Numbered from the stretch's first letter, positions 20,199 to 57,951 are shown. The stretch: 64,000 bases of DNA from a virus (IMGVR_UViG_3300043410_001242), one strand, 5' to 3'. Numbers and translations are program-made. Notes: a model not told the origin generated them from the sequence alone.

Positions 20199-20308
20199 AG
20201 CTGATACTCCTCTGTAGTATTAGAACCCTTGGATATTACCAGTATCGCGAAGGGTATTTTTCGTGCGTTAGCACTTGTGTTGACACTATTATTTATACAT
20301 TATATTAT
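20199..20308 (-). promoter_or_regulatory. endonuclease leader: late promoter, conserved hairpin, RBS hairpin; divergent sigma70 promoter
   Basis: TATAAATA (rc of 20290-20297); stem 20225-20255; + strand TTGACA-17-TATTAT 20280-20308. Confidence 0.7.
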
Positions 20309-20500
20309 GAAATCTATATCTGTCTTATCCTTTCTATTAAACCTTTCTATGGTACTATCCATTATAGCATTCTCATATAGAGGATGGATTGGTATTATCT
20401 CTATTATATCTGGTATTCGGTTATGATTAATATTATTCTATTGGTATCTGTATTGGTTATATTCTTTTATTGTTTATTCTTTTTCTATGAGGATTAGGTT

Positions 20501-21172
20501 ATGGATATATCATTAACAGTTATTAGAAAGATAGCCAAAGAGAATGGTCTATCTGTTAATAATAATATACTGGCATTTGCACAAGGTATATCCAATCATG
20601 TATCGGGTAAGATTGAAACTGATATTAAGAAAAAGGTGGCGCGGGATATTGTTGAGATGCTCGGTACTAATGTTACTACCTCTGGTGGTACTGTTAAGGT
20701 TAAGTTTCGGAATGATTTGAGTTTTGATGATGTACGGGCATTATTTGATTATGATGGTGTGAATGGTGGTTTAGTATGGAAGAAGGACGGTAAACCTGCC
20801 GGTTCTGTTGAGCATCATGGTTATATTCGTATTGGTGTAAGAGGGAAAACATATAGGGCACACCATTTGGTATGGTTATGGCATCACGGTGTATTTCCTG
20901 ATACTATTGTGGACCATATTAATCAGATCAAGAATGATAATAGGATTGAGAATCTTCGGTTATCTGACCCGACTCTGAATAACCTTAATCGGACGACCGG
21001 TTCCAATAACACCTCTGGATATAAGGGTGTATCATATCTCAAGAAACGGAACAAGTATGAGGCATCCATTACAGTCAAAGGGAAAATGCACCGGTTAGGT
21101 CAATTCAATACCTTTGAGGAGGCCAAGTATGCACGAATGGCATATGAGGAAGAATTGTTGAACGGTGGTTAG
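20501..21172 (+). CDS. HNH endonuclease with AP2 domain
   Basis: YRAHHLVW, VDHIN..KNDNRIENLR, NNTSGYKGV, LGQFNTFEEA. Confidence 0.85.
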   Translation: MDISLTVIRKIAKENGLSVNNNILAFAQGISNHVSGKIETDIKKKVARDIVEMLGTNVTTSGGTVKVKFRNDLSFDDVRALFDYDGVNGGLVWKKDGKPAGSVEHHGYIRIGVRGKTYRAHHLVWLWHHGVFPDTIVDHINQIKNDNRIENLRLSDPTLNNLNRTTGSNNTSGYKGVSYLKKRNKYEASITVKGKMHRLGQFNTFEEAKYARMAYEEELLNGG

Positions 21173-21223
21173 CAGACTATTTCACGGATGCTGGCTTGAC
21201 TTTTTGGTTGGTTCTGATACAAT
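21156..21223 (+). promoter_or_regulatory. cassette promoter copy 3
   Basis: Boxes 22 bp apart, gap 12, TTGACT-16-TACAAT. Confidence 0.8.
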
Positions 21224-21229
21224 CTTTCC

Positions 21230-21424
21230 ATGATGAAAGTTAAGACAAAGACAGCGAAAGAAATGGTACTGGTATCCGAATGGTTAACTCGGTTTGGTAT
21301 CAATTACACTATTAAAGGGTTCACTATTCAATTCTCTGATATTGAATATCATCATTGGTTGATTATTAAATCAGCCGTGAGATTGAATACTGATTCTGTT
21401 ATTGACCATTTGGAGATTGAATAA
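21230..21424 (+). CDS. hypothetical protein (probably leaderless)
   Basis: ATG 7 nt after the -10. Confidence 0.55.
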   Translation: MMKVKTKTAKEMVLVSEWLTRFGINYTIKGFTIQFSDIEYHHWLIIKSAVRLNTDSVIDHLEIE

Positions 21425-22782
21425 AATGAAAGTTTATATTGTAGTATATCGTTATTGGGATGATTCTGAAGTGATTGGCGTATTTACTTCGGCAGATATT
21501 GCAGAGAAGTATATCGAGCAGTCTATTCTTACCTGTTTTGGTAAGAAGGCAGATATTAGTAAGTATCGTGATTGTTATTCGGTTTCTATTGAAGATGTTA
21601 TTGCGGAGTAGTGGTGAATATTATGAAAGATTATAAAGAAATGTCTGAATCTGAATTGGTATCTGAATATAAGGATATTTGTGAAGAATTGGAAGAATGT
21701 GAGTTTGGTTCTTATTCCTACGATGTTTTGAATATGGAATTACAGTATATTCACAGCGTATTATCTGAAAGAGGTTTATAATGTGTGAATGTAATTATGT
21801 TTATTGTGTAATGGAATCTTCATACCCTGCACCTATGGGATTGAGGGTATTCTCTACCTATGCAAAGGCAGATGCATTTAGAAAGGTATTGATGGAAAAG
21901 TATCCTAATTATTCTAATTTTTATGTTGAAAGTATTGAGGTTGATGAATAATGAAAATCAAATATAGAGTTCGTTGTAAGGGTTTAAGGTGGTATGCGAC
22001 ATTTAATACCTTATCAGAAGCAGAAAATCATGCTAAAACCGCATGGGAATTTAAGGATAGTCCCAATAACTATATTGAAGTGATTATAACTGCAAAAGTT
22101 TAATTGGATTTGGAGTTCATATTATGAAAGGTTATATTGTATATCATTATGCAGAGAATTCTCAAGAATGGATGAATGAGTTATTCAAAGAGAATAAGTT
22201 TCCGGTATTTGATTTTGTATCTGACGATAGAGTATTAGCCATGGAGAAACATACCGAATTAGGTGGTATGGATAAGGGTTATTATATTGCACAAGTATCT
22301 GAAATGGTAATGGGAGAATGAATAATGTGGTTTTATATAACGTATTGGTCGAATCTTGATAAATGTTATGGTGAAGATACTATATGGGCAGATTCTTCTG
22401 AATCAGCAAAGAGTATATTCTTTGAATCTCTCGCAAATCATGATTGTGAAATAGTATCCGTGGAGATTGAATAATGGAAGATGAATATAAAAAGTTTATT
22501 AAGGTTGAAGAAGTGGTTGAGCATACACTTGAAATTGATATTGATGAATATGATGATCCCTGTCCTGATTGTGGTAAGCAATTAAAAATGTCCAATTCTG
22601 GTGGTGTATATTGTTCTTGTGGGTATTGGTTCTGTTATTAGAGGGGTGAATTATGACTAATGAAGTAATGATTGCCTCAGTAATGGGGTTTGTGTTGATT
22701 ATAATGGCGTATTACATTATTACAATTTAATTATGAAAGTATATAATGATTTATATTATGTAAAAGAATTGGAGATTGAATA

Positions 22783-22944
22783 ATGAATAAAGTATTAGAT
22801 TTATATTGGAGTGATATGTATAATGAAATCAAGAATGGTAATATATCACCTGATGAATTTCATCAATGGTTATGGGATATATCAGATCAATCCTATCGGA
22901 ATGGTTATAATGATAGTGACCGCGTGAATACTGGTGGTGTATAA
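22783..22944 (+). CDS. hypothetical protein, near-identical paralog of 23439..23642
   Basis: Shared VLDLYWSDMYNEI...DSDRVNTG. Confidence 0.6.
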   Translation: MNKVLDLYWSDMYNEIKNGNISPDEFHQWLWDISDQSYRNGYNDSDRVNTGGV

Positions 22945-23110
22945 TGAAAGTTTATATTATTATTGAAACTGGTACTCATGGTCGTGATTGTATCTATGGA
23001 GTATTTGCGTCTAGAGAATCAGCATCTAATTGGATTGATAATCAACCTTGGTTATCTGAAGTAGATAAAGAGTTTCTTATTATTATTGAAGAAGAATTGA
23101 GGGTTGAATA

Positions 23111-23452
23111 ATGAAAAAGACATATATCATATATTGGAATTTTGATGGACGGATAGTTCAAAATCGTGAGAAATGTACCTATGAAGAATTAAAAAAACAT
23201 ATCCATAAAACGATAACTGAATATAAAGCAAATATAGAATATGTGGAAGAAATTATAGAATCGCGGGCCCGAATTGATATAGATGGAAAAGAACCGAAAA
23301 CCTTTATTGGTCCGAAGTCAGACAAAAAGTCGTTATTGGAAATGATTGAGGCAATACCTAGACGCATTGAGCCATTAGGCGGTCAGAGATTCAGCTACGT
23401 CAAACTTGCAGAAGTAATTGACACCATAAAGGACTATTATGGAGTATTGTAA
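23111..23452 (+). CDS. hypothetical protein
   Basis: 113-aa ORF, GAGG RBS. Confidence 0.55.
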   Translation: MKKTYIIYWNFDGRIVQNREKCTYEELKKHIHKTITEYKANIEYVEEIIESRARIDIDGKEPKTFIGPKSDKKSLLEMIEAIPRRIEPLGGQRFSYVKLAEVIDTIKDYYGVL

Positions 23453-23642
23453 GATAATGGTAGAAATGCAGAATCGCGTATTAGATTTATATTGGAGTGA
23501 TATGTATAATGAAATCATCAAGGGTAATGTATCACCGGATGAATTTCATCAATGGTTATGGGATATATCGGAACAATCATATCGGGATGGTTATAATGAT
23601 AGTGACCGTGTGAATACTGGTATTGTTGGAGAACCGCAATAA
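23439..23642 (+). CDS. hypothetical protein, paralog of 22783..22944
   Basis: DNA-level duplication. Confidence 0.6.
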   Translation: MEYCKIMVEMQNRVLDLYWSDMYNEIIKGNVSPDEFHQWLWDISEQSYRDGYNDSDRVNTGIVGEPQ

Positions 23643-24248
23643 TGGAAAATGATTATAATAAGTTTATTAGGGAAATATCAGACGAATACCTATTCAAATC
23701 TGATATTGATGATGTTGAGGAGTTTATTGAAACCAAGGATTTTGAATCGTTTGGTGTAGAATATGAAACCGTGGTATTTGATGTTACCATGTTTATATTA
23801 GAGCAAGATTATGAGTGGGATGAATAATGAATAATAGAGATAGTGTAGTCCAATTGAGAGAGATTATAGAATGGATTAAGGAGATTGATACAGGGAATGA
23901 AAACTATAATTATAAACTGTTGAAAGTCCAGCAGTTTATAGAAGATATTGTTATTGATATGGTATATGATAAACTGGATAATGGGAGTGAATAATGAATA
24001 ATTGTGGTGAATCCATATTCGTTTTTATTCTATTCACTCTATTTGTATTGGGTACATGGAAAGCATTTGAGATTATTATTTGGTTATTTCAACACGTTAG
24101 GATAGTATAATGTTATATCTTATTAGTGTTGATAATGATGGTCTGATATATTCTGGTGGTGATACACCAGAGGATGCCATTAAGGCTGTTGAGTTTTTTC
24201 TTGGTGAAGGCAGGCAATATACGGTCCTGCACCAAATCGACCTTTAAG

Positions 24249-24411
24249 AATCAACCACTTACAACACACAATCCTCCCCTCCTGCATCCTTCCCACCTGC
24301 CCTGGTGTTCACCGTCACGGACACAACCAGGGCGCCTCTCGATTGTTCACTCCTAAGAAGCGCATTGTTTCACGGCCGCTGGCTTGACTTCCTCACTGGT
24401 TCTGATACAAT
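24249..24411 (+). promoter_or_regulatory. cassette promoter copy 4 with IHF site, C-rich tract and hairpin
   Basis: AATCAACCACTTA; GCCCTGGT...ACCAGGGC; boxes 24344/24366; TTGACT-16-TACAAT. Confidence 0.8.
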
Positions 24412-24586
24412 CTTTCCATAGTCAGAGAGAAATTGAATTAGGAGTTAAATTATGAAAGTCAATAAACAATATATGGTCGGTTACAATAACGGGTTTTGGA
24501 TGGAATTCAAAGTCTCATTATCCCTTGTGGTTATGTTTCTGACCTTTCTTACCCTTTTCGCGAATTAATTAATAGGAGAATATATC

Positions 24587-25003
24587 ATGGCTTATATGAA
24601 TCAAAACCTCAAAGCAGAATTGGCACCTGGTATCAAGGCTGTATTAAAGAAATATGGCATGAAAGGTAGTATTGCTGTCCGTCACCATATGTCCCTGGTT
24701 GTCAATATCAAGAGTGGTAAACTGGATATCATGCAAAACTGGTATGATAAAGTAACCGAAAATGGTACTGTCAACCAGTATGGTGACAATATCAGAAAGC
24801 CTGAATACCTTGATGTTAATCAGTATTGGATCGAAGATGGTTATACTGGTATTGTCAAGGACTTCATTAATGAACTATATGCCGCCATGAAAGGTGATAA
24901 ATGGTTCGATAAATCAGATATTCAATCAGACTATTTCCATACCGCATACTATATGGATATTCATGTTGGGAATTGGAATAAACCGTATATCTTTGAGGGT
25001 TAA
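24587..25003 (+). CDS. conserved phage hypothetical protein
   Basis: AGGAGA RBS; DKSDIQSDYFH motif. Confidence 0.7.
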   Translation: MAYMNQNLKAELAPGIKAVLKKYGMKGSIAVRHHMSLVVNIKSGKLDIMQNWYDKVTENGTVNQYGDNIRKPEYLDVNQYWIEDGYTGIVKDFINELYAAMKGDKWFDKSDIQSDYFHTAYYMDIHVGNWNKPYIFEG

Positions 25004-25286
25004 TAATGGATACTAGAGTTAAATTTAGTGAAGTGTCTATTGGAGAGATATTCTTTGATGAAGTATCTGGAGAGTATTGGAGAAAAGACAATCTCACGAC
25101 TGCCAGTATTATGTCTGGCCATTATGATGGTACTGATATTTTTCAAATTGATGAATATGTTATTGTAGAGGTTGAATAGTATGTGTGAAGATTATGATGT
25201 ATATCAGTATGATGAGTATTATTGGGATAGTATTCCATATGATGATATTTACGATACTGCCGAAGAAATTGATTTAAAGGATTGGG

Positions 25287-25544
25287 ATGAATAAAATGAA
25301 AAAATATAGTAAGAAAGAACAATATAATATTCTCTGCCAGTCGGCAATACTGGTTAATGATGAAGGATCATTTCGTATTGATTATGTACCCGAGTATGAT
25401 GTTTTATTAAATGGTGATGATTCTATTGTATTGAGTAATGAATCAGATGGTGAAGATTATTATTATGATCTTGATGAAATTGATTTAAATGATCCATCTA
25501 CCAATACCTATAGACTGGTATTATCTAACCCTATTGTGGAGTAA
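25287..25544 (+). CDS. acidic hypothetical protein
   Basis: ORF in module. Confidence 0.5.
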   Translation: MNKMKKYSKKEQYNILCQSAILVNDEGSFRIDYVPEYDVLLNGDDSIVLSNESDGEDYYYDLDEIDLNDPSTNTYRLVLSNPIVE

Positions 25545-25811
25545 CCATGGATAATGTATTTGTTGTGGTATATGAGTATTTCGATGATTTTGAAGTCTTG
25601 GAAGTATTCAAGACTAGAGCATTAGCAGAATGTTATATTGGGAATTTCCCGCATGATGGTGTATATTATACTGTTGATAATTTCGATATACTAGAAAAGA
25701 AACTTTGGGAGTAATATGTTAGAATTTGATAACCTTCAAATGATGGTGCTCTGGCACTATGATTGGGTGCTACACCTCCACCTGTCATTCTGACAATCCA
25801 GGGCATTTATA

Positions 25812-25975
25812 AATCAATCACTTATAACACCCAATCCTTTCCTCCTGCATCCTGCCCTGGTTGCACGGCATACACTCACACCGATCCACGGACCACTGTT
25901 AACCAATCTGCTCATCATTGTTTCATGGATTGACAGCAATCCGCGCTTGACATTCGATGGATTTTGTGAGACAAT
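25812..25975 (+). promoter_or_regulatory. cassette promoter copy 5 with IHF site and C-rich tract
   Basis: AATCAATCACTTA; boxes 25897/25919; gap 22; TTGACA-17-GACAAT. Confidence 0.75.
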
Positions 25976-25981
25976 ACCACC

Positions 25982-26152
25982 ATGAAATCAAGAAACACAA
26001 AGCGAAACGGGTACTTCCAGGTTCTAGTCTATCAAGGCACCGACTGGGTTGATACCAAGAAATATAAAACCATGAACCGTGCTTATGACTTCAAAGCAGT
26101 AAGAGAATCCCTGGGATATACTGTTAAGGTCAAATGGGTTAATTTGGACTGA
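25982..26152 (+). CDS. 56-aa hypothetical protein, probably leaderless (not in ORF track)
   Basis: ATG 7 nt after the -10; MKSRNTKRNGYFQV... Confidence 0.5.
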   Translation: MKSRNTKRNGYFQVLVYQGTDWVDTKKYKTMNRAYDFKAVRESLGYTVKVKWVNLD

Positions 26153-26169
26153 TTATTAGGAGATATATT

Positions 26170-26385
26170 ATGTGGGATTTTAAAGATATGTATATTACTG
26201 CTGATTATTATGGCCATACCGTTACTGGTAAAGTCAGAGATTCTCGCGTAAAACTGGGTGGTACTATTGTCCATTATATTGACTTCGATCAACCACAGCC
26301 GGTGGGTTTTCGTGGAACTATGCGGGATGGTGTAATGGTCGAACACGCTTGGGTTAAAAGGGTAAGAGATAACATTGGAGAATAA
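26170..26385 (+). CDS. hypothetical protein, paralog of 43507..43716
   Basis: Shared SRVKLGGT.VHY...MRDG.MVEHAWV. Confidence 0.7.
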   Translation: MWDFKDMYITADYYGHTVTGKVRDSRVKLGGTIVHYIDFDQPQPVGFRGTMRDGVMVEHAWVKRVRDNIGE

Positions 26386-26707
26386 TTATGTATATTCAAT
26401 TTGATGATGCTATGGGTTTGTGGGCAGTATTAACTGATGATGATCGGTTACTGTCTTATTTCTATAATAAAATGGATGCTGAATCATTTCTTAATGGTAT
26501 GAAGTCATTCATTAATACGGTTGGTGGTTAATATGAAGAAATATGTATTTGAATATCTCGATGATGAAGGACTATTCGAGGAGTTTCATATAAAGGCTGA
26601 AGACCGAGAAACGGCATGGTTTAAAATCAAAGAATATGCTGGTATTGGTGCCGTTATTCTGGGAGTATATGAGGAGATTTTCAGCGGCGAGTGGTTGGTT
26701 GAGTGAT

Positions 26708-26774
26708 TGTTGCCTCCTGGTTAGCAGACTGTTTCATGGATAGAGCTTGCAATCCTCCACGGTTCTGATACAAT
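26708..26774 (+). promoter_or_regulatory. cassette promoter copy 6
   Basis: Boxes 26708/26730, gap 11, TTGCAA-16-TACAAT. Confidence 0.8.
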
Positions 26775-26987
26775 CCTCCCATAGTTTGAAACATTGATTG
26801 GAGATTATATTATGAAAAACAGAACTACCGTTAAAACTCGCACCCTTCCCTTCACCGTGGTATACACCGTCGATGGTGTAACCACCAAAAAGAGATTCAC
26901 GGAGGCTGGTGCCGCATGGAGTTTTATGTCCAAGGTCGGCGGACACCTTAACATGGCATTCCGCACCGCTTAATTAGGAGATATATT

Positions 26988-27731
26988 ATGAAACTGTTAT
27001 CCACTGGTAACCCAAAAGTATTAAAAGGTCTGTCTCAAGGGTACAATACCTATATCCTGCACCTTGCACCTGCTGACCTTTCTGGGTATGAAACCTGCGC
27101 CAAACGGACTGCTGGTTGCACCGCCGCCTGCCTTAATACTGCCGGACGTGGCGGTATGTTTAAGACTGGTGAAACCACTAATGTTATCCAGCAGGCTCGT
27201 ATTCGCAAAACTAAACTATTTTTCGAGGATCGGGTTACCTTTATGGCCCAATTGGTCAAAGATATTGAACTTGGTATTAAGCAGTCTCTTAATAAGAATC
27301 TGATTCCAGTATTCCGTCTTAATGGTACTTCAGATATTGCATGGGAAAAGTATTCAGTAACCCGTGATGGTCTGGTATATAAGAATATCTTTGAGGCATT
27401 TCCTAATGTTCGGTTTTACGATTATAGTAAAGTATTGGGTCGTCGCATTAATCATATTCCAAACTACCATATTACCTTCTCTGCCGCTGATGGCAATGGT
27501 TTGGATGTCGTTAAGGCTATTAATGATGGGTATAATGTTGCGGTAGTATTTGGTGGTAAAGTATTACCCACAGAATATCTAGGCCGTCCTGTTATTAATG
27601 CTGATGATAATGACCTGAGATTCCTTGATCCTAAGGGTGTTATCTGCGGACTTGTTGCAAAAGGTAAAGCTAAAAAGGATACTACTGGTTTTGTGAGATA
27701 TCCTTCCTTTGAAATTAAGTCTGCGGCATAA
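26988..27731 (+). CDS. GP88-family phage protein
   Basis: C..R..GC.AACLNTAGRG, RLNGTSDI.WE, FYDYSK, DNDLRFLDP. Confidence 0.7.
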   Translation: MKLLSTGNPKVLKGLSQGYNTYILHLAPADLSGYETCAKRTAGCTAACLNTAGRGGMFKTGETTNVIQQARIRKTKLFFEDRVTFMAQLVKDIELGIKQSLNKNLIPVFRLNGTSDIAWEKYSVTRDGLVYKNIFEAFPNVRFYDYSKVLGRRINHIPNYHITFSAADGNGLDVVKAINDGYNVAVVFGGKVLPTEYLGRPVINADDNDLRFLDPKGVICGLVAKGKAKKDTTGFVRYPSFEIKSAA

Positions 27732-27809
27732 TTATTTTCTAGAAAACCATTATATTTTCACATTTTACGACTAAATAATTAAGTATAGTTTGTAAACTAG
27801 GAGAATATA

Positions 27810-28373
27810 ATGGACTGGAATAATAAAGAACAAGTCAGAGAGTATAACAGACAGTATAGAAAAGAGTGGGAAAAATCACCAAAAGCTATTGAATATCGTA
27901 AAAAGAGAAATGAATTAAAAAAAGAACAAAGAAGATTAGATAAATTAAACAGACCATCTAAAGAGAAAAAGATTATTGATCCTCTTATTAAAAAAGAAAA
28001 GGATCGAATAAAATTTGAAAAGTATTATTGCACCACAAAAGGTCGTGCGGCACATATGCTTGATAATGCAAGAGCTCGAGCCACTAAAAAGAATATTCAA
28101 ATCACTATAACCCAAGATTGGATACAGGAGAAACTCGATAATGGTATCTGTGAAGTATCTGGTTTACCTTTGAATTTTAGTATAAATGGTGGTAAGGGAC
28201 ATAAAGAAAATTCATTTGCTCCATCTATTGATAGAATTAACCAAACTGGTGATTATACACCAGAGAATTGTCGATTAACTTGTTGGATTTTTAATAGAGC
28301 ACGGGGTGCATTCCCTGATGATGATTTTGATATATTACTTGAAGCGTTAATTGAAAGGAAAAAGAATGTCTGA
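27810..28373 (+). CDS. putative HNH-like endonuclease
   Basis: CEVSG...PSIDRIN...Y...NCRLTC; CTAAATA late-like promoter upstream. Confidence 0.65.
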   Translation: MDWNNKEQVREYNRQYRKEWEKSPKAIEYRKKRNELKKEQRRLDKLNRPSKEKKIIDPLIKKEKDRIKFEKYYCTTKGRAAHMLDNARARATKKNIQITITQDWIQEKLDNGICEVSGLPLNFSINGGKGHKENSFAPSIDRINQTGDYTPENCRLTCWIFNRARGAFPDDDFDILLEALIERKKNV

Positions 28374-29304: not shown

Positions 29305-29335
29305 CGGTGCCAACCAGGGCATCCACGCCATTGTA

Positions 29336-29952: not shown

Positions 29953-30291
29953 ATGTTCTATACTTATAATCAAAATAACTCTGGTGGTTCATTCCACCAT
30001 GATGATAAGATAACCTTATATGTAATTGTAGAAGCGGATTCACCGGATGAATCTGATACTATTGCAGAAGGTATTGGTATCTATTTCAATGGTTGTGATG
30101 ATGATATTGATTGTCCGTGTTGTGGTGATAGATGGTGTCCCGCATATGATGGAAAGGATGAACCATTAGTATATGGTAAATCACCAGATGAAATGAAAAC
30201 TGATGAATGGGGTTTAATGTGGACCGATCCCGGTGAAGTATATTGTCGAGTATTCTATAAAGATGGTACTATTAAGGAGTATATTAAATGA
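29953..30291 (+). CDS. conserved phage hypothetical protein
   Basis: QNNSGGSF...DCPCCGDRW. Confidence 0.7.
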   Translation: MFYTYNQNNSGGSFHHDDKITLYVIVEADSPDESDTIAEGIGIYFNGCDDDIDCPCCGDRWCPAYDGKDEPLVYGKSPDEMKTDEWGLMWTDPGEVYCRVFYKDGTIKEYIK

Positions 30292-33745: not shown

Positions 33746-34360
33746 CTAATTCAATCTAATACACTTCCATCCTTTAGTATCTTTTAATTTCCCTTTAGAT
33801 ACTGAAGTCATGTTACCCGGATTCAAATTATTATCTCTACAAAATTGTGACATATTACTTATTGTGTAAGATATACCGTTTGGGTCCGTAACTAACCATT
33901 TTTTAGAATTTATAAAATAGGCATCTAACCGTTTATTAATTGATTCTATTTTATGTTTCTTTCCTTTATTAGAATTTCCTATTTTTCTTTTCCAATCATC
34001 AGAAAATGGTGGTCTTGATTTACCAGTATGTGATATACCTATTTTTCTCTTATGTTCATTGGTTAGTATTCGTCCAGAACAACCATCACCCCCGTCAGTT
34101 TTATTGCGAAGAATACCAGTATTATTATCTTTTCTACCAAACCAACGGATATAATATCTCTCAAGTATGAAAGATTGTAATTCTGTTAGATTTTGTTCTA
34201 TTATTATAATAAGAGATTTGTTTTTAGGTGGTCTTACTTCCCCTTGACCTTTGGTATGTGATCGTTTACCTTTACCCTTACCAATATAATATGGTGTATA
34301 ATCATCACGAAGATAAGCATAAACATAATATATTGATTGATTTGGATTATAAATATCCAT
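33746..34360 (-). CDS. free-standing GIY-YIG homing endonuclease
   Basis: N-terminal half very similar to 19542..20198; NUMOD3-like HKRKIG repeats. Confidence 0.8.
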   Translation of the reverse strand: MDIYNPNQSIYYVYAYLRDDYTPYYIGKGKGKRSHTKGQGEVRPPKNKSLIIIIEQNLTELQSFILERYYIRWFGRKDNNTGILRNKTDGGDGCSGRILTNEHKRKIGISHTGKSRPPFSDDWKRKIGNSNKGKKHKIESINKRLDAYFINSKKWLVTDPNGISYTISNMSQFCRDNNLNPGNMTSVSKGKLKDTKGWKCIRLN

Positions 34361-34446
34361 GTGATACTCCTTGATAGTATTACTGGGTATGGTAGTTGGT
34401 AGCTACGCGATACCCTTTTTTGTTGTCTTTTGTTTTATTATTTATG
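34361..34446 (-). promoter_or_regulatory. endonuclease leader: late promoter, conserved hairpin, RBS hairpin
   Basis: CATAAATA (rc of 34439-34446); stem 34385-34415. Confidence 0.7.
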
Positions 34447-49380: not shown

Positions 49381-49381
49381 C

Positions 49382-49410: not shown

Positions 49411-49440
49411 GTATTCTCAAATCGAAAATTGGTGATGTAG

Positions 49441-50589: not shown

Positions 50590-50600
50590 AGGAGAATTGG

Positions 50601-51353
50601 ATGTTTTTCTTTTTTAAGAAAAAGCCAGTATATCTGGATTGTTTTACTACACACACAGGAGCCTTTCACGCTCCTGTGGATTATTCATATAGGTTTTATC
50701 CTGATTGGTGGAAACTACTGGAAAAAACTGTTACAGATGAGGAATATGGAGATTTAGGTGTAGAAAATCCCACAATGAAGAATTGTGTGGGTTTTATAGA
50801 TTTTTTCAAAAATTCTATAACTGTACCGATGTGGAGTGACTTCTCATTACGTTTAGGAACAAAATACAGGCCTGGATATAACTGGAAATTTGCAGATGAC
50901 TTTTCACGAATAGAAGTGCATAAACCTATGCAATGGGGTTCATTTTTTCCAGAAAACAAATATCTTCATGGAAAATTTGTTAGTCCATGGAAATTCAAAT
51001 GTAAAGAAAACATATACTTTCAAAAATGTGGACCTTTTTATAACATTCTCAATCCACACCTTATTATGTTTCCCCCAGGTTTACTTGAGTTCAAGTATCA
51101 AGCCGCAGTTAATGTTAATTTTCTTTTAGTGCCACAAAACGAAGAATGTAATATGTTTATGAAGTATTATGATCCTTTGGTGCATTTTACTCCTCTTACA
51201 GAAAGGCCAGTTAAACTGAAAATACATCTTGTTTCACATGAAGAATACGAGAAGATTGGACTAACATTTGTTTCGTTTAATAGAAATTATTATAAAATGA
51301 AAAGGGCATCAAAGAATAGTAGTGTTTGCCCGTTTACACACCCTAATAGGTAA
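50601..51353 (+). CDS. hypothetical protein
   Basis: AGGAG RBS; 250 aa aromatic-rich. Confidence 0.6.
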   Translation: MFFFFKKKPVYLDCFTTHTGAFHAPVDYSYRFYPDWWKLLEKTVTDEEYGDLGVENPTMKNCVGFIDFFKNSITVPMWSDFSLRLGTKYRPGYNWKFADDFSRIEVHKPMQWGSFFPENKYLHGKFVSPWKFKCKENIYFQKCGPFYNILNPHLIMFPPGLLEFKYQAAVNVNFLLVPQNEECNMFMKYYDPLVHFTPLTERPVKLKIHLVSHEEYEKIGLTFVSFNRNYYKMKRASKNSSVCPFTHPNR

Positions 51354-51357
51354 TATT

Positions 51358-51600
51358 ATGACAGAAGATGAAAAGTTGAATTTTAAGGAATTACTCAAGA
51401 GTAATGTTGTAGAAGTTGAATTCACCAAGTTAAATGGTGAACAAAGAGTAATGAATTGCACTTTGATGGAATCATATCTACCACAGACGGATTCAACAAA
51501 AAGCAAGAACCAAGACAATTCTTTGGCCGTTTGGGACATTGATAAGAATGGTTGGAGGAGTTTTAGATATGAAAACATTACGTCCTTTGGTCTAAAATAA
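51358..51600 (+). CDS. SH3/WYL-like small phage protein
   Basis: VEFTKLNGEQRVMNCTL...VWDIDKNGWRSFR. Confidence 0.7.
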   Translation: MTEDEKLNFKELLKSNVVEVEFTKLNGEQRVMNCTLMESYLPQTDSTKSKNQDNSLAVWDIDKNGWRSFRYENITSFGLK

Positions 51601-51603
51601 ATC

Positions 51604-51644
51604 TTGACAAAATTACTCAAGAATAGTATAATCCAGTATAAATA
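51604..51644 (+). promoter_or_regulatory. tandem sigma70 and T4-late promoters of pmoC
   Basis: TTGACA-17-TATAAT (51604-51632) then TATAAATA (51637-51644). Confidence 0.8.
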
Positions 51645-51662
51645 GTTTTGATGATGTGGAGA

Positions 51663-51698
51663 GTGTGACAGGATGTCGCACCTAACTCACAAGGACGT
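51663..51698 (+). promoter_or_regulatory. CsrA/RsmA-type GGA motifs in pmoC leader
   Basis: Hairpin GTGTGAC-AGGAT-GTCGCAC and second site ACAAGGACGT. Confidence 0.5.
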
Positions 51699-51731
51699 AT
51701 TTTGTAACTTTAAGATGTAAAGAGGTATAAT

Positions 51732-52508
51732 ATGTCAGCTATTAGTGCAAATGCTGTTAGAGAGGAAGCACCAGTCTTGAATAAGGCTTGGTTGTCTTTC
51801 GCGTTTGGTTTGTATTTCGTATTCTATCTATGGGTACGTTGGTATGAAGGTGTATATGGTTGGTCCGCAGGACTTGATTCATTCGCACCTGAGTTTGAAA
51901 CCTATTGGATGAATTTCTTATATACAGAAATTGTCCTAGAAGTCACAACCGCAAGTATTCTTTGGGGTTATCTTTGGAAGTCAAGAGATCGTGATCTTGC
52001 CAATATTACACCAAGAGAAGAACTTCGCCGTAATATGACACACCTTGTATGGTTATTTGCTTATGCAAATGCAATCTACTGGGGTGCATCATACTTTACT
52101 GAACAAGATGGTACTTGGCATCAGACTATCGTAAGAGATACTGATTTTACTCCAAGTCATATCATTGAGTTCTATCTTACATACCCAATCTACATTATTA
52201 CTGGGTTTGCTGCATTCCTTTATGCAAAGACAAGACTTCCTTACTTCGCACAAGGACTTAGCCTTCCATACTTGGTAACTGTTGTAGGACCATTTATGAT
52301 CCTTCCAAATGTTGGTCTTAATGAATGGGGACACACCTTCTGGTTTATGGAGGAACTTTTTGTCGCCCCTTTACATTATGGTTTCGTGTTCTTTGGTTGG
52401 CTTGCTTTGGCTATTGCGGGTGTATTGCTACAGGTCTTCTCATCTTTTGCTGGTTTAATCGGCGATCAGATTGTTGAGTCTGTTGATAAGGGTTTGATTG
52501 CAAAGTAA
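51732..52508 (+). CDS. pmoC: particulate methane monooxygenase subunit C
   Basis: WSAGLDSFAPEFETYWMN, EQDGTWHQTIVRDTDFTPSH, NVGLNEWGHTFWFMEELFVAPLH, C-terminal GLIAK. Confidence 0.97.
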   Translation: MSAISANAVREEAPVLNKAWLSFAFGLYFVFYLWVRWYEGVYGWSAGLDSFAPEFETYWMNFLYTEIVLEVTTASILWGYLWKSRDRDLANITPREELRRNMTHLVWLFAYANAIYWGASYFTEQDGTWHQTIVRDTDFTPSHIIEFYLTYPIYIITGFAAFLYAKTRLPYFAQGLSLPYLVTVVGPFMILPNVGLNEWGHTFWFMEELFVAPLHYGFVFFGWLALAIAGVLLQVFSSFAGLIGDQIVESVDKGLIAK

Positions 52509-52527
52509 TCTAACTCACATAACCAAA

Positions 52528-52555
52528 CAAAGGGGAACTTCGGTTCCCCTTTTTT
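52528..52555 (+). terminator. intrinsic terminator after pmoC
   Basis: AGGGGAAC-TTCG-GTTCCCCT plus T run. Confidence 0.9.
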
Positions 52556-52562
52556 ATTGCAA

Positions 52563-52618
52563 TTTTAATGGAATCTTAATATAACTGTAATACTCCGGTA
52601 ACATTCCTGTGATAAAAT
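52563..52618 (+). promoter_or_regulatory. Pho-box-like 11-bp direct repeats with -10
   Basis: TTTTAAT, TCTTAAT, CTGTAAT, CGGTAAC, CTGTGAT at 11-bp period; TAAAAT 10 nt after the CTGTAAT-N4-CGGTAAC pair. Confidence 0.55.
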
Positions 52619-52649
52619 ACCTTCGTATTTTTAAACAACGGAGACATAA

Positions 52650-53366
52650 ATGAAGAAATGGTTACTTTTAGTTCTTATTCTTATATCACATTCTGTATTC
52701 GCGAATGGAGAAGGTTCTGAACAATTATTTGGACAATGGACACAGTTTGCAGCTTACGGTAATTTTGGTAACAAAAGTCCTTGGATTTGGTGGACTGATG
52801 TTGCAGTAAGAAGTTCTCAGAATCATAAAGCAAAAGACGGAACACAAGGTTATGACGTTGGTTCTATTCCAACTCATAGCGCAGTAGGATACCAATTTGA
52901 TCCATCCAATTCTTTGATGTTGGGTTATACATATCAGTATAGTCAACCACCATACGCAAAGAAATCAACCAATGAAAATCGTATCTATCAACAATTTCAA
53001 AACTCTTTAGATTGGAAAGAAAACGGTAAACTAACAAACAGAACTAGATATGAACAGAGATGGGTTACATATTCCAGTGAAATGGCTCAAAGGTTGAGAC
53101 ACCAAGTTAAGTTTCAATATCCTATCAATAAAGACTGGGGATTCGTAATTAGTGATGAATTGTTTCTAAATATTAATAGTGTAAACTGGGGACCAAAGGC
53201 TGGATTTGACCAGAATAGAGTGTTTATTGGACCCGTTTACAATATAGATGACAGACAGAGAGTAGAGTTTGGTTACATGAATAACTATGTAAACAAAGAC
53301 TTAAAATCAGATCTAGATAATGATGTGTTAGTTATTAACTATTATTACAATTTTACAGATTATTAG
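52650..53366 (+). CDS. DUF2490-like outer-membrane beta-barrel protein
   Basis: Signal peptide; ENRIYQQ, RTRYEQR, RLR, DELF, GFDQNRVFIG, EFGYMN. Confidence 0.8.
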   Translation: MKKWLLLVLILISHSVFANGEGSEQLFGQWTQFAAYGNFGNKSPWIWWTDVAVRSSQNHKAKDGTQGYDVGSIPTHSAVGYQFDPSNSLMLGYTYQYSQPPYAKKSTNENRIYQQFQNSLDWKENGKLTNRTRYEQRWVTYSSEMAQRLRHQVKFQYPINKDWGFVISDELFLNINSVNWGPKAGFDQNRVFIGPVYNIDDRQRVEFGYMNNYVNKDLKSDLDNDVLVINYYYNFTDY

Positions 53367-53374
53367 GAGGAATT

Positions 53375-53446
53375 ATGTGGGAAAAACCTTCATTTAAAGA
53401 CATTCGTTTGGGATTTGAAGTAACTACCTATATCTACAATAGATAA
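53375..53446 (+). CDS. pqqA: pyrroloquinoline quinone precursor peptide PqqA (not in ORF track)
   Basis: AGGAGG RBS; MWEKPSFKDIRLGFEVTTYIYNR with W.KP...D.R.GFEVT.Y..NR and E-X3-Y core. Confidence 0.93.
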   Translation: MWEKPSFKDIRLGFEVTTYIYNR

Positions 53447-53447
53447 C

Positions 53448-53476
53448 TTGACAAAACATTCTTATTGTGATACAAT
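53448..53476 (+). promoter_or_regulatory. sigma70-type promoter
   Basis: TTGACA-17-TACAAT with TG extension. Confidence 0.75.
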
Positions 53477-53501
53477 ATATACTAAATTATGGAGAGTGAA
53501 A

Positions 53502-53822
53502 ATGGCAAAGCATAAGTTTGTTGTAATTAAAGGCAGAAACCTTTTTGTAGGAATTCATGGGTTACAGTATGAGATTTTTGATACTGTAACCTTTGAATGC
53601 AAGGAAGAACAAGTCACAGACTTACAACGGAAGTACGTCTATCGTAAACTACATACAGTAGACAACAAAAGTAATCCACTTTCTTTTCGCAGAAAAGTGT
53701 ATTGTCGTAGGCGTCATATTCTAAAACATGACGGGTCTATCTTTGCAGATAGAATCAAATTATTTGACCATGAAGATGGAACATATTACGGGTTTATTCC
53801 TGTAGAGTGTTTTAAATTCTAA
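53502..53822 (+). CDS. hypothetical protein
   Basis: GGAG RBS before ATG 53502. Confidence 0.55.
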   Translation: MAKHKFVVIKGRNLFVGIHGLQYEIFDTVTFECKEEQVTDLQRKYVYRKLHTVDNKSNPLSFRRKVYCRRRHILKHDGSIFADRIKLFDHEDGTYYGFIPVECFKF

Positions 53823-53856
53823 TCAAATCTTTCTGTTAACAACTAGAGGTAATTAA

Positions 53857-54249
53857 ATGAAGAAGCTTTTTGTATTTGTACTTTCTGCATTTCTTTTTGG
53901 ATGTGCGGGCACCACTAAGTGGGAACCTACTCTGAATAGTATGCCACACAAGAATCAGGCGGCCGAGTCGAAGGATCTTGCAGAGTGTAAGGATCTCGCG
54001 TTCCAGGCGGCAGGGTACGTCAAGGAAGGTGCAGAATGGGCATTTGTGAGTGCCGCAGGTGGTGCTGCTGAAGGCGCCGTGATCGGTGCCTTGGTGTCTG
54101 GTGCTGGTGGCGCAGGTATGGCCGCTGCAGCTGGTGCACCAATTGGTGCAATCGCCGGTCTCTGGTATGCTGAATATGAAGCAGATATTAATTATAAGAG
54201 AGCATACTCAAATTGCCTATTCCAGAGAGGTCATTATCCTATTAACTAA
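53857..54249 (+). CDS. glycine-zipper lipoprotein
   Basis: Lipobox LFGC, Gly/Ala zipper, C...RGH end. Confidence 0.75.
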   Translation: MKKLFVFVLSAFLFGCAGTTKWEPTLNSMPHKNQAAESKDLAECKDLAFQAAGYVKEGAEWAFVSAAGGAAEGAVIGALVSGAGGAGMAAAAGAPIGAIAGLWYAEYEADINYKRAYSNCLFQRGHYPIN

Positions 54250-54268
54250 TAGTTTCTTGGATGTTGAC

Positions 54269-54294
54269 AAAGGGACCTTCGGGTCCCTTTTTTT
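54269..54294 (+). terminator. intrinsic terminator
   Basis: AAAGGGACC-TTCG-GGTCCCTTT plus T run. Confidence 0.9.
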
Positions 54295-54299
54295 ATGGA

Positions 54300-54328
54300 T
54301 TGACAACACCACCAAAGTGTGTTATAAT
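54300..54328 (+). promoter_or_regulatory. sigma70-type promoter
   Basis: TTGACA-17-TATAAT with TG extension. Confidence 0.8.
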
Positions 54329-54358
54329 GTGTCATACATTATGAGTTAAGTGATTGTT

Positions 54359-54730
54359 ATGAATCTTGAATCGTTTTTTGAAACTTCCACTCCACAGGAC
54401 CTTGGTCAGTTCCTGACTCAATCGAAACAGGAATTAAAGGCCAAGGTCCAATCTAAAATTCGCCAGCGCAGATCACAAATGTTGGTGCATTCATATATCT
54501 ATTATGTTCTAGACGATAATATCGTTTCTGATGACAAATGGCAACAATGGGCTAATGAATTGCGTGATATACAAAAGGAATATCCGGAGTATTGCAAAAT
54601 CAATTTCTTTGATAGAGAATTCTCAACATGGAACGGTGATTCCGGTGCCTTTCTGCCGTTAAAAGATCCATACGTTATTCGCAAAGCGAATTACATTTAT
54701 AATCTGGTGAAAAATGAAGAAAACAAATAA
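54359..54730 (+). CDS. protein resembling N-terminal domain Ia of NAD-dependent DNA ligase
   Basis: HSYIYYVLDDNIVSDDKW...EL...YPE. Confidence 0.6.
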   Translation: MNLESFFETSTPQDLGQFLTQSKQELKAKVQSKIRQRRSQMLVHSYIYYVLDDNIVSDDKWQQWANELRDIQKEYPEYCKINFFDREFSTWNGDSGAFLPLKDPYVIRKANYIYNLVKNEENK

Positions 54731-55120
54731 AAGAGACACTTTCGATTCACAAGAACTGGCATATTTCTTTGCCAACCTTGAAGATAAACCAGTATATGCA
54801 TATTGTGCGTATAACTATTATCGTCTTTTGAAGGTTGTTGATTTGGGTCATGCATATGTCCTGCTTTCACCTGAAGAAGAAGGTTGCTGGATGCCTTCAT
54901 CTAGTATTAGAGAAAATGAAAACAAACCAGAACATATAGTAAAGGAGGAAGACAATGGACCAGAAATCGCATAATGTTTTAATATCATACGACCATAACT
55001 TATATGATATACCTTCAGACTTAGAAGAAAGATTTGAATTTCTGACTAAGAAAATTGATTATGCCAAATCTGATCCTGATTATTATGAACTATTGGCTGG
55101 AACTAAGATAATTTTTAATT

Positions 55121-55588
55121 GTGAGTTTGATAAGTATGAATGTAAATCTTGATCTGTCAGATTTTTGGCGGGGGTATATTGATATTTCAAAAGTAGAAAA
55201 GAAATATAATGTAAAATTTGTCTGTGAAACTCCAATCAAAGATAAATTTGGATGGAGAGTGACACCCTCACTTATCTTCTATGGAGAGAAACATCCACAA
55301 GGTTCAAATTACATGGCCCTTTCAGTAATACTTAATTCTGATGGTAAAGCTGATATGGTAGTCTCCGATGGTATCTCTGCAACAGGGTGTGATATCATTG
55401 GTATTATTGATGGAGACGAGGTAATTTATTCTAGATATCGGCATGATTATCGTGTAGGTAAAACTGGGGTATTTATTGATGGTGGCCGCGATTATGTAAG
55501 GTCTGGTACTCCTGATCCAGATCAATATGTAACAATGAAAATCATTGAAGGTAAATTAGAGGTAATTGAAAATGAAGAATCGATTTGA
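55121..55588 (+). CDS. conserved phage hypothetical protein
   Basis: YSRYRHDY...IDGGRDYVR. Confidence 0.6.
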   Translation: MSLISMNVNLDLSDFWRGYIDISKVEKKYNVKFVCETPIKDKFGWRVTPSLIFYGEKHPQGSNYMALSVILNSDGKADMVVSDGISATGCDIIGIIDGDEVIYSRYRHDYRVGKTGVFIDGGRDYVRSGTPDPDQYVTMKIIEGKLEVIENEESI

Positions 55589-55780
55589 TTTTGAACAAGA
55601 AATTATGGGTTGTTGGAATGTCGTGGAAGATCTAAAACTATTGAATGAAGGTGTTTTAGAAAGGGATATTTCGCGGGATCAGGTTTCTAATATCCTGTTG
55701 GGTATGCAAGAGGTATATCAATTGAAATTTGAAATTCTATTTGATACATTTGAAACTCTAATTAGAGATAAGGAAATCTA

Positions 55781-56596
55781 ATGAAAATCTTAGTAACGGG
55801 TTCGGAAGGATATATTGGTAAACATCTAATTAAAATGTTGGGTGATGAACATGAAGTAACCAGACTTGATATAAAAGCTGATGACTTTATGATGGCAACA
55901 GATATTACTAAACTTCCATCTGAAATACCCAATGTTCTTGCTGAGTTGGATGTTGTTATTCATCTTGCGGCTAGAGTAAAAGTTAACGAATCAGTTACTA
56001 ACCCTTGGTTATATTATAACACAAATGTTAATGGAACCAAGAACATTCTAAATCATGTAAAATGTCGCCATTTTATCTTTGCATCCACAGGAGTGGCATC
56101 AAAACCTGCAAACCCTTATGCATTATCTAAGAGAATTGCAGAAGATATTGTAAAGGAACATTGTCAGGAAAATGGATTTGACTTTACCATCTTTAGATTC
56201 TATAATGTTATTGGTTCTGATGGATTTGAACCTACCAACCCTGATGGGTTATTCTTCAACCTGAATAAGGCAGTAGAAACAGGTACATTCAACCTTTGTG
56301 GAACTGATTATAACACTATTGATGGAACTTGTCTTAGAGATTATATCCATGTGAATGAGGTCTGTAATGCTATCATTAAGTCATTGGAAACTCCATCAGG
56401 TCAGGTAGAAAATTTAGGTACTGGTGAAGGTAAAACTGTATTGGAAATTATCAATCAATATAAAGATACCAATCAGGTAGATTTTGAGGTAATCGATGTA
56501 GGTAGAAGAGAAGGTGATCTTGAGGTAAGTGTGTTGGATAACCCTTCCAAATACTTCGATAAATTGTATACATTTGAAGAATTGTTGAGGAAGTAA
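55781..56596 (+). CDS. NAD-dependent epimerase/dehydratase (GalE-like)
   Basis: VTGSEGYIG, HLAA, YALSK, RFYNV, DGTCLRDYIHV, RREGD. Confidence 0.88.
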   Translation: MKILVTGSEGYIGKHLIKMLGDEHEVTRLDIKADDFMMATDITKLPSEIPNVLAELDVVIHLAARVKVNESVTNPWLYYNTNVNGTKNILNHVKCRHFIFASTGVASKPANPYALSKRIAEDIVKEHCQENGFDFTIFRFYNVIGSDGFEPTNPDGLFFNLNKAVETGTFNLCGTDYNTIDGTCLRDYIHVNEVCNAIIKSLETPSGQVENLGTGEGKTVLEIINQYKDTNQVDFEVIDVGRREGDLEVSVLDNPSKYFDKLYTFEELLRK

Positions 56597-56597
56597 A

Positions 56598-57239
56598 ATG
56601 AAAGTCTATTTGTCCAATTATCGTAACCATTGGTTATCACCTTATCACATTCTGGAAAAGGTATTGTTCTGGAAAGATTGGGAAAATATTGATTACGATG
56701 AACCTTGGGTTGATAAATGGTCAGATAGACTTGAACCATCATGTATTAAATTACAGAAGGTATTGGATTTTATTCATCCTCGCATCACTTATGTGAAGAT
56801 TGATAAGTATGATACATGGGACATGGATAAAACTCTGTCTCCTATTATTCTTCCTATGTTGAAACAATTGAAGGCAACCAAACATGGTGCGCCTATGGTA
56901 TCTGATGATGATGTACCAGAAGAATTAAAAAGCACTTCTGCACTACCTAAAGAAAATGAATGGGATACTGATAGCAATCATTTCAGACGATGGGATTATG
57001 TCATAGGTGAAATGATTTGGGCTTTTGAACAATTAGTTGATGAGAATTGGGAAGACCAATATTACACAGGAGAAAGTGATTATATTTTCGTCAAATCGGA
57101 TGAATATGGTTTGATGGTTATGGAGAAAGGTCCAAAACACACTCAAGAATGGGATCGTGAAGGTTGGACAAATCACCATAAACGCATAGATAATGGATTG
57201 AGGTTGTTTGGTACTTACTATAGAGGACTATGGTCGTAA
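56598..57239 (+). CDS. conserved phage hypothetical protein, C-terminus altered by endonuclease insertion
   Basis: DTWDMD.TL..IILPMLKQL...LFGTYYRGLW. Confidence 0.7.
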   Translation: MKVYLSNYRNHWLSPYHILEKVLFWKDWENIDYDEPWVDKWSDRLEPSCIKLQKVLDFIHPRITYVKIDKYDTWDMDKTLSPIILPMLKQLKATKHGAPMVSDDDVPEELKSTSALPKENEWDTDSNHFRRWDYVIGEMIWAFEQLVDENWEDQYYTGESDYIFVKSDEYGLMVMEKGPKHTQEWDREGWTNHHKRIDNGLRLFGTYYRGLWS

Positions 57240-57860
57240 TTTACATTTATCAAAGTGCCATCTTTTCATATTTGTTAATTGACCAACTTTACCACAATGA
57301 GGACAATCAACTTTAGTTGTATTATTTTGATGACATTTCAGATTTTTCTTATGATTTTCACTCATTGGTTTTGATACACCTCTAGTTGTTAATGATATTT
57401 TTCTTTTGGTTTCCTCTGAAAGTTTTGGTATTGGTGTTATGCCTGATTTAAAATTTATTACCCTAGATTCGGTTCTTTTTCTTATATGTTCTTTAGTTTG
57501 GGGTTTTGGTTTTCCTTTAGTTTTTATTGATTGTTTAAGTCTTTCTTCTGATGTTCTTACTCTACCAAAACAACCATCACCACCAAAAGTTGAATTATAA
57601 CCATTATGGAATGAATCATATTCATTAATGAAATAATTTTCCATTTCTTTTAATGTGTGATCCTTATCTGTTGATTGATATATGATTTCCCAAATAAAAT
57701 TATCCCAACCATATTTCCTTATGGCACGATAAAATTTACAATCTTGATTTTTGGATGCGGATTTATGAATTCTTTGACGATTGGGATAATTGGAATCAAA
57801 TCCAATATACACTTTATTGTTTATGGTATTTCTGGCACTATAGATGGTATAAATATTCAT
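57228..57860 (-). CDS. free-standing GIY-YIG homing endonuclease
   Basis: IYSARNTINNKVYIG, AIRKYG, GYNSTFGGDG, NUMOD3-like SEETKRKIS, CPHCGK. Confidence 0.85.
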   Translation of the reverse strand: MNIYTIYSARNTINNKVYIGFDSNYPNRQRIHKSASKNQDCKFYRAIRKYGWDNFIWEIIYQSTDKDHTLKEMENYFINEYDSFHNGYNSTFGGDGCFGRVRTSEERLKQSIKTKGKPKPQTKEHIRKRTESRVINFKSGITPIPKLSEETKRKISLTTRGVSKPMSENHKKNLKCHQNNTTKVDCPHCGKVGQLTNMKRWHFDKCKLRP

Positions 57861-57951
57861 GCTGATACTCCGTTATAGTATTAGAGTCTGTGGGAACGCC
57901 AATTCCGTGACAGACTTTTTTATTGACTTATTTTACTATTTATGTTATAAT
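57861..57951 (-). promoter_or_regulatory. endonuclease leader: late promoter, conserved hairpin, RBS hairpin; divergent sigma70 promoter
   Basis: CATAAATA (rc of 57937-57944); stem 57885-57916; + strand TTGACT-17-TATAAT 57923-57951. Confidence 0.7.

Follow-up and report, generated by a model that had tools for sequence, protein, structure and literature searches.

The 64,000-nucleotide (nt) viral sequence IMGVR_UViG_3300043410_001242 (the window, meaning the whole stretch of DNA that was analyzed) carries three genes on the (−) strand, HEG1, HEG2, and HEG3, whose products are homing endonucleases by Pfam search and which share a structured leader in front of the start codon. This leader, a cassette of ∼90 bases, is a real, widespread, and strongly covarying element, and the pattern of its noncanonical pairs indicates that the fold was selected on the strand opposite the mRNA. 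Our favored reading, to which we assign a probability of roughly 0.55, is that two facing late promoters would yield a cis-antisense RNA of ∼60 to 75 nt, made of two hairpins and a U-tract, over the ribosome-binding site (RBS) of the nuclease gene. The observations which carry this reading are the anatomy of the element, its covariation, the strand of the fold, a constraint on synonymous sites in the first codons, matches to promoter consensus sequences, and the borders of the HEG3 cassette.

A covarying leader common to unrelated nuclease genes

HEG1 (19542-20198; 218 amino acids) and HEG2 (33746-34360; 204 amino acids) both encode NUMOD3 motifs and are 48% identical. HEG3 (57228-57860; 210 amino acids), which matches Pfam GIY-YIG at 2.1e-6 and has relatives of the SegD type among named phages, shares 27% identity with HEG1. 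Read in mRNA sense, all three leaders have the same order: a late promoter, (T/C)ATAAATA; a 20- to 35-nt spacer closing with an A-run; a first hairpin (hairpin 1); an RBS element, TAATACT-N5-GGAGTATCA; and, 2 to 4 nt on, the ATG. A preliminary description of the window had placed a late promoter, A-run, hairpin, and RBS-pairing element upstream of positions 20198, 34360, and 57860, and we saw them at all three coordinates. The late promoters, which are consensus matches on the (−) strand, lie at 20290-20297 for HEG1 (TATAAATA), 34439-34446 for HEG2 (CATAAATA), and 57937-57944 for HEG3 (CATAAATA, 20 nt upstream of hairpin 1). The stems of hairpin 1 differ completely among the three copies (in mRNA sense, ACCCTT-cgc-GATA...TATC-c-AAGGGT in HEG1, GGGTAT-cgc-GTAG...CTAC-c-ATACCC in HEG2, and AGTCTGT-cac-GGAA...TTCC-c-ACAGACT in HEG3). 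On the (+) strand, the HEG1 copy consists of an RBS helix at 20201-20223, hairpin 1 at 20225-20255, and an A followed by T5 at 20256-20261; the HEG2 copy consists of an RBS helix at 34361-34383 with a G-C closing pair, hairpin 1 at 34385-34415, and a T6 run at 34416-34421. In the HEG3 copy, the RBS helix occupies 57862-57884 (C-TAATACT / AGTATCA-G in mRNA sense; 8 bp including one G.U on the (+) strand), hairpin 1 occupies 57885-57916 (an 11-bp covarying helix with two single bulges around one base pair), and directly after it comes a T-run at 57917-57921, which together with the hairpin resembles an intrinsic terminator.

Three sites in the window match the 21-nt RBS pattern exactly, with 0 mismatches, where 0.91 occurrences would be expected for up to 3 mismatches, and a covariance model of the family scored the three sites at 68 to 83 bits and the rest of the window at 12 bits or less. 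We also noted a miniature RBS helix (TACTATTAAGGAGTA) at 30267-30281 on the (+) strand, near the end of the open reading frame (ORF) 29953-30291, which scored 11.8 bits with this model, termed R1. Outside the window, the exact 21-nt element was found in at least 119 IMG/VR loci, and ∼110 of the matches listed have the whole architecture, which in relatives runs ATAAATA, ∼5 nt, stem 1, C-R-C, stem 2, loop, 3′ arm of stem 2, one Y, 3′ arm of stem 1, YY, TAATACT-N5-GGAGTATCA, N2-4, and ATG. Searching with model R1 gave 101 matches in 91 T4-like loci of IMG/VR, including 16 copies whose RBS helix is unlike the search pattern. The genes flanking the family loci are T4-type (UvsX, gp41, gp43, and gp59). 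The window itself encodes nrdA, nrdB, RNase H, RNA ligase, and a protein ∼33% identical to a conserved cyanomyophage protein annotated as "peptidase," and because it carries these genes, we take its source to be an uncultured, distant T4-like phage.

The proteins encoded behind the element are diverse. The 70 complete ORFs fell into 45 clusters at 50% identity, with a BLAST match in 622/2415 pairs, and their Pfam domains include NUMOD3, GIY-YIG, SegE-type GIY-YIG, HNH, TnsA-like, and MTES_1575, which has a Vsr-like fold. The head of the gene is therefore far better conserved than the protein and is common to unrelated nucleases. This result supports the earlier suggestion of a portable cassette, since at least 100 endonuclease genes, from several families, begin with the element, and it does not support the suggestion of a GIY-YIG-specific element, since HNH and Vsr/MTES-like genes are also headed by it. 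The element has no match in Rfam: at gathering threshold, the whole window matched only transfer-messenger RNA (tmRNA) families and not the leader, and the top match for copy 1, searched at E values up to 10, was the hsp17 thermometer with 18 bits, below its threshold of 45 bits. Phages S-SRM01 and B3 are the nearest named relatives by DNA, and their HEG1 homologues lack the leader; the covariance model found no match in the S-SRM01, B3, or S-PM2 genomes, and blastn with a canonical leader found none among 50,697 phage records. The 120 bacterial and archaeal matches listed for the 21-nt pattern were rejected as chance, as none combines hairpin 1, a late promoter, and a start codon.

Two groups of atypical loci were also seen. 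In three contigs from Parvarchaeota/Nanoarchaeota metagenome-assembled genomes (L163, L166, and L235), the sequence TATAAATAtctccg-TAATACT-tgtaa-GGAGTATCA-ATG precedes an ORF, so that a late-promoter-like box and an RBS helix adjoin the ORF directly, without hairpin 1; these may be phage contigs binned into the assembled genomes. At L033, L096, L021/L029, L030/L075, and L111, the module is intact and the ORF behind it is missing, truncated, or mutated at its start (ACG in L033), and the module seems to outlast its nuclease gene.

Structure was counted in an alignment of 86 sequences (A3) and, for the RBS helix, also in 101 parsed copies. All 11 pairs of hairpin 1 vary on both sides, 98% of cells are paired in the 86-sequence alignment, 0/500 shuffles attained the observed covariation score, and no slid register came close. 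The covariation of the stems, proposed from three copies, thus holds in a larger alignment. The four inner pairs of the RBS helix covary as well (TAATGCT/AGCATCA, TAATGTC/GACATCA, TAATATC/GATATCA, TAAATCT/AGATTCA, and TAAACAT/ATGTTCA), and its closing pair, which lies just outside the search pattern, is C-G in 65 sequences, U-A in 19, and G-C in 1. In the sense strand, this helix leaves the GG of GGAG in the loop. The site described as a conserved "CRC/C internal loop" is in fact one covarying base pair (G-C 61, A-U 7, A.C 17, U.G 1) with a single bulged C on either side. A kink-turn or L7Ae-type motif, defined by a 3-nt bulge and then tandem sheared G.A pairs, was rejected here because the middle base is paired and G-C pairs follow the bulge region.

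The strand of the fold and a facing promoter core

A helix selected in the sense RNA is expected to drift through G.U pairs. On the mRNA strand of A3, the non-Watson-Crick cells are A.C in 25 cases and G.U in 3, in addition to one invariant A.C present in 86/86 rows; in the 101 parsed copies of the RBS helix, A.C or C.A occurs 8 times and G.U 0 times, again in addition to the A.C in 101/101 rows. All A.C cells of the mRNA strand are G.U wobbles on the complementary strand. When the invariant position is included, standard pairs in A3 amount to 92.8% in the sense direction versus 99.5% in the antisense direction. The predicted folds of the window copies are −24.6, −23.5, and −19.1 kcal/mol on the (+) strand versus −15.3, −17.9, and −14.7 kcal/mol on the mRNA strand, and the RBS helix alone is predicted at −5.2 versus −2.4 kcal/mol. 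Because the noncanonical pairs are A.C on the mRNA strand and G.U on the opposite strand, we conclude that the fold was selected on the strand opposite the mRNA. The covariation together with this wobble bias amounts to conserved secondary structure on the antisense strand, which is what control by a cis-antisense RNA requires.

A second promoter-like core faces the first from inside the coding sequence. The motif TATTTA on the mRNA strand lies 6 to 11 nt past the RBS helix, mostly 7 to 8 nt, in 81/90 distinct leaders; the opposite strand at this position reads TAAATA, usually ATAAATA, which is the core of the sense promoter and lies at a similar distance from a helix base. In the window, candidate antisense promoters reading TATAAATA on the (+) strand are found at 57848-57855, across codons 2 to 5 of HEG3 (AAT ATT TAT Acc), and at 34348-34355, across codons 2 to 5 of HEG2. 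The 64-kb window contains five occurrences of TATAAATA, where 8.9 would be expected, and three of the five are at the cassettes (the (+) strand sites of HEG2 and HEG3 and the sense promoter of HEG1). Each strand has a consensus late-promoter core whose distance from the fold is fixed, the promoters being known here as consensus matches.

Most ORFs behind the module begin M-x-I-Y, and the codons used there are unusual. In these starts, ATT encodes Ile in 64/66 (39.5% in the rest of these ORFs; p = 1e-23), TAT encodes Tyr in 65/66 (77% in the rest of these ORFs), and the third base of codon 2 is T in 65/66 (34% elsewhere; p = 2e-29), which indicates that the constraint on codons 2 to 4 acts at the nucleotide level. 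HNH genes which start with MYLN or MLFI keep TAAATA or TATAAATA in another frame, and a Vsr/MTES-like gene which starts with MDIY keeps the motif with the same codons. The motif is kept equally with a co-oriented upstream neighbor (28/35) and with an opposed one (38/46), and it is therefore part of the module and not of its context. We also considered long-range pairing of the UAUUUAU in codons 2 to 4 with the sense ATAAATA, which would act as a T4-like early/late switch, and rejected it; the flanking positions do not covary, and eight copies with CTAAATA retain TATTTAT, contrary to such a helix.

Proposed antisense control and its alternatives

In the mechanism we propose, the late promoter (T/C)ATAAATA would fire into the nuclease gene and the second core, ATAAATA on the opposite strand in codons 2 to 4, would fire back out of it. 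The antisense transcript would start ∼6 to 7 nt past its core, at the base of the RBS-helix complement, cross the complement of hairpin 1, and end at the U-tract, so that the expected (+) strand RNAs span roughly 57861-57921, 34361-34421, and 20199-20261. Each would be fully complementary to the 5′ untranslated region, Shine-Dalgarno sequence, and start codon of the nuclease mRNA, and pairing would block ribosome binding and/or create a substrate for RNase III, holding a potentially toxic nuclease at a low, thresholded level. As the stems and loops of the three copies differ, each RNA should be specific for its own mRNA. As the cassettes are antisense to their neighbors, the (+) strand hairpin and T-run should also end read-through from upstream (+) genes, and the σ70-like promoter within two of them (copies 1 and 3) would restart transcription. 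The preliminary description had viewed the region as a sense leader RNA, or translational operator; given the strand of the wobbles and the facing promoter core, an antisense RNA gene is the more likely interpretation.

A broader form of this reading, which we hold tentatively and at slightly less than an even chance, is that a portable antisense "governor" heads GIY-YIG, HNH, and Vsr-like genes throughout a large uncultured T4-like clade. It would comprise the facing late promoters, the two-hairpin RNA, the terminator, and the first four codons of the nuclease, with copy-specific stems and loops making the copies orthogonal and with an insulator adaptation in phages like this one. In T4-like phages, the principal mobile elements are homing endonucleases, and the accepted view is that they are controlled by a hairpin of the sense RNA which masks the RBS and has the late promoter embedded in it. 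If the proposal is correct, a swappable antisense-RNA module would be a second and apparently undescribed solution to nuclease control; it would account for the much stronger conservation of the 5′ region than of the proteins and would add a large family of phage small RNAs, none of which is in Rfam.

Several points weigh against the antisense reading. HEG1 has ATATATA at the position of the antisense promoter (20187-20193), which departs from the ATAAATA core at one base, and 9/90 family leaders have no TATTTA motif. The codon p-values are inflated by shared ancestry, and the case for nucleotide-level constraint lies mostly in synonymous sites of related N termini, a frame other than xxT-ATT-TAT being used in only 5/71 motif cases. 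The late promoter is identified by a 7- to 8-nt consensus only, and in most relatives the U-tract begins 2 to 3 nt past the stem and is interrupted by A (e.g., ACTTTTATTTAT), which makes a nonideal terminator. A different explanation for the invariant A.C could be selection for a weak sense RBS helix. With two late promoters, it is hard to see how repression would be timed, and promoter firing, termination, RNA pairing, and repression are all deduced from the sequence.

Comparable antisense control is provided by RNA-IN/RNA-OUT of IS10/Tn10, by P22 sar, and by the antisense RNAs of type I toxin-antitoxin systems. As in the proposed module, the promoter of IS10 RNA-OUT lies in the first codons of a selfish element's enzyme, points out of the gene, and faces the gene's own promoter, and its product is a short, stable RNA with a bulged stem which is complementary to the mRNA 5′ end, RBS, and start codon. 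Unlike IS10, both promoters here match the phage late ATAAATA, the predicted RNA would have two hairpins and a U-tract, and the module is swapped among unrelated homing endonuclease families of lytic T4-like phages. A precedent which we count in favor of the antisense reading is CfrI of cyanophage S-PM2 (Millard et al. 2010, cited in PMC2984593), an experimentally detected antisense RNA which overlaps a homing endonuclease gene and which, like the proposed RNA, belongs to a T4-like aquatic phage. CfrI differs in its length of ∼225 nt and in connecting psbA with the endonuclease gene, and the S-PM2 genome has no match to our model.

An alternative which we consider unlikely is that the element acts as a sense-strand leader, in which the 5′ hairpin stabilizes the late mRNA or binds a protein at its bulges, the RBS hairpin throttles translation, and the structures of the opposite strand arise as by-products. 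Folding predictions place both hairpins in the sense RNA of each of the three copies, and most relatives have the late promoter ∼5 nt before hairpin 1, which would place the hairpin at the extreme 5′ end of the mRNA. RBS-masking hairpins are also established for T-even endonuclease genes (I-TevI, I-TevII, I-TevIII, segB, and Aeh1 mobE), in which the late promoter lies inside a very stable RBS-masking hairpin and late transcripts escape (PMC2988022). The leaders described here resemble these genes in having a late promoter immediately upstream and a helix over the Shine-Dalgarno sequence, a control which limits nuclease expression, but the T4 paradigm of a late promoter with an RBS-sequestering hairpin, which had been applied to the cassette, is not followed. 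The promoter is upstream of both hairpins (5 nt from hairpin 1 in relatives and 20 to 35 nt in the window) instead of in the 5′ arm, so there would be no early/late switch and, in the window, hairpin 1 would not be at the mRNA 5′ end; the sense RBS helix is not very stable (−2.4 kcal/mol, with an A.C mismatch always present); and the fold is selected on the other strand, with a preference for A.C over G.U (25 to 3 and 8 to 0) which is the reverse of what a sense fold predicts. The sense reading also leaves the synonymous-site constraint on codons 2 to 4 unexplained.

Similar hairpins have been interpreted in the sense direction before. In Dassa et al. 2009 (PMC2677866), "fractured gene" loci of the Global Ocean Sampling data, with GIY-YIG and Vsr-like endonucleases in T4-like marine and freshwater sequences, had hairpins in 15/16 endonuclease 5′ untranslated regions, ten with TATAAATA, and two conserved motifs which pair mutually; one hairpin remained after loss of the endonuclease. 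Compared by description, these are probably members of the same family. They were read there as sense translational regulators, with no covariance model, test of the strand, or antisense promoter described. A stable hairpin just upstream of an RBS which it leaves uncovered is also known at seg43(25) of Aeromonas phage 25 (PMC2988022); by description only, it resembles hairpin 1, and neither an RBS helix nor an antisense promoter has been reported there.

Rather improbable, in our judgment, is that the element is solely an insulator, in which the opposite-strand fold is an intrinsic terminator for backward transcripts from neighboring genes, followed by an outward promoter, and no discrete antisense RNA is made. 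All three window cassettes are antisense to (+) strand neighbors, and the (+) strand reads ATTTTT, TTTTTT, or TTTTT after each hairpin 1, so that the window copies have the stem-loop (an 11-bp bulged stem) and direct U-tract of a Rho-independent terminator; the T5-T6 directly after the stem bears out the earlier report of a terminator-like hairpin. A terminator scan made no calls at these hairpins because the bulges break the stem. The canonical T-run on the (+) strand follows from the A-run between late promoter and hairpin; most relatives have a U-tract complementary to the sense promoter and its A-rich spacer. The two σ70-like promoters reported previously are also present on the (+) strand, each matching 11/12 consensus positions and facing (+) genes: TTGACA-17-TATTAT at 20280-20308 in copy 1, facing the downstream genes, and TTGACT-17-TATAAT with an upstream TG at 57923-57951 in copy 3, within the HEG3 insertion and overlapping the late promoter. 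Across the family, an antisense TTGACA is commoner with a diverging upstream neighbor (15/46 versus 4/35). Against an insulator as the sole function, ∼40% of the family is co-oriented with its neighbors and keeps the same fold and the ATAAATA of codons 2 to 4; a plain terminator needs no conserved RBS helix, no two conserved bulges, and no promoter-like heptamer; and no outward σ70-like promoter was found in copy 2 (HEG2). A self-insulating cassette, as suggested earlier, is plausible for this phage.

Very improbable is an element which acts at the DNA level, either as a single-stranded DNA hairpin or cruciform or as a palindromic operator (ATACT-N7-AGTAT) to which a phage protein or an endonuclease binds: 1496/1529 cells are Watson-Crick, which fits a structure able to form on either strand, G.T is tolerated in DNA hairpins too, and I-TevI represses itself by binding an operator over its own late promoter (PMC2988022), but the proteins encoded downstream of the leader (45 clusters at 50% identity; GIY-YIG, HNH, and Vsr-like) are too diverse for one operator, which makes an autorepressor unlikely, the helix arms covary rather than hold a fixed sequence, and the strand asymmetry of the wobbles is unexpected for recognition of duplex DNA.

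The HEG3 insertion and neighboring features

HEG3 is bracketed by the two copies of a 29-nt direct repeat, 90% identical and spaced 750 bp apart. The left copy (57212-57240) forms the present 3′ end of the gene at 56598-57239, which now ends ...GLWS*, and the right copy (57962-57990) holds the ancestral ...GLWD* end and the GAGGA RBS region for the next (+) gene. Within the 750-bp insertion are HEG3, its two late-promoter cores, the hairpins with the T-run, and the TTGACT-17-TATAAT promoter, and the locus shows base by base how a backward cassette can fit into an operon without silencing the genes downstream. In two related contigs (L256 and L257), the insertion is absent and the upstream gene directly precedes a homologue of 58145-58411. 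No module was found near the homologues of gene 56598-57239 in 80 related loci (0/80). One contig (L260:4133-4800, (−) strand) has a HEG3 homologue of 39% identity which occupies this site, likewise backward, behind the 56598-57239 homologue; it has the late promoter TATAAATA and lacks the hairpin module, and the module is therefore optional.

No convincing flanking repeats were found at HEG1 and HEG2. We looked for an allele without HEG1 by way of its right neighbor and found no clean empty site, the neighbor being another endonuclease. This fourth homing endonuclease (20501-21172, (+) strand), with HNH_3 and AP2 domains, is divergent beside HEG1 and has no copy of the module; it has 468 IMG/VR relatives, one of them at 75% identity (L334). 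Just past and into the 3′ end of HEG1, at 19386-19569, are four copies of a 17-nt repeat (CACTACATATAGTATCA) which are 76 to 100% identical and spaced by 71, 32, and 64 nt. Further on, at 18849-19070 (+), a small protein has a sub-threshold match to the RNA polymerase-binding domain SutA (28.3 bits against a cutoff of 29.3 bits).

Next to the HEG3 insertion, the sequence GATTAATATG(A/T)(A/C)ACAT occurs at 57984-57999 and 58138-58153, 154 bp apart, around a 50-codon ORF (57991-58143) which is absent from L256/L257; the region 57984-58153 looks like a second small insertion which duplicated the stop/start junction. Finally, at 62881-63295 on the (+) strand, the window encodes a two-piece (permuted) phage tmRNA (Rfam tmRNA_permuted, 109.6 bits; alpha_tmRNA, 66 bits), for which ARAGORN gives the tag ANDDVYSYALAA and which may hint at the host lineage.

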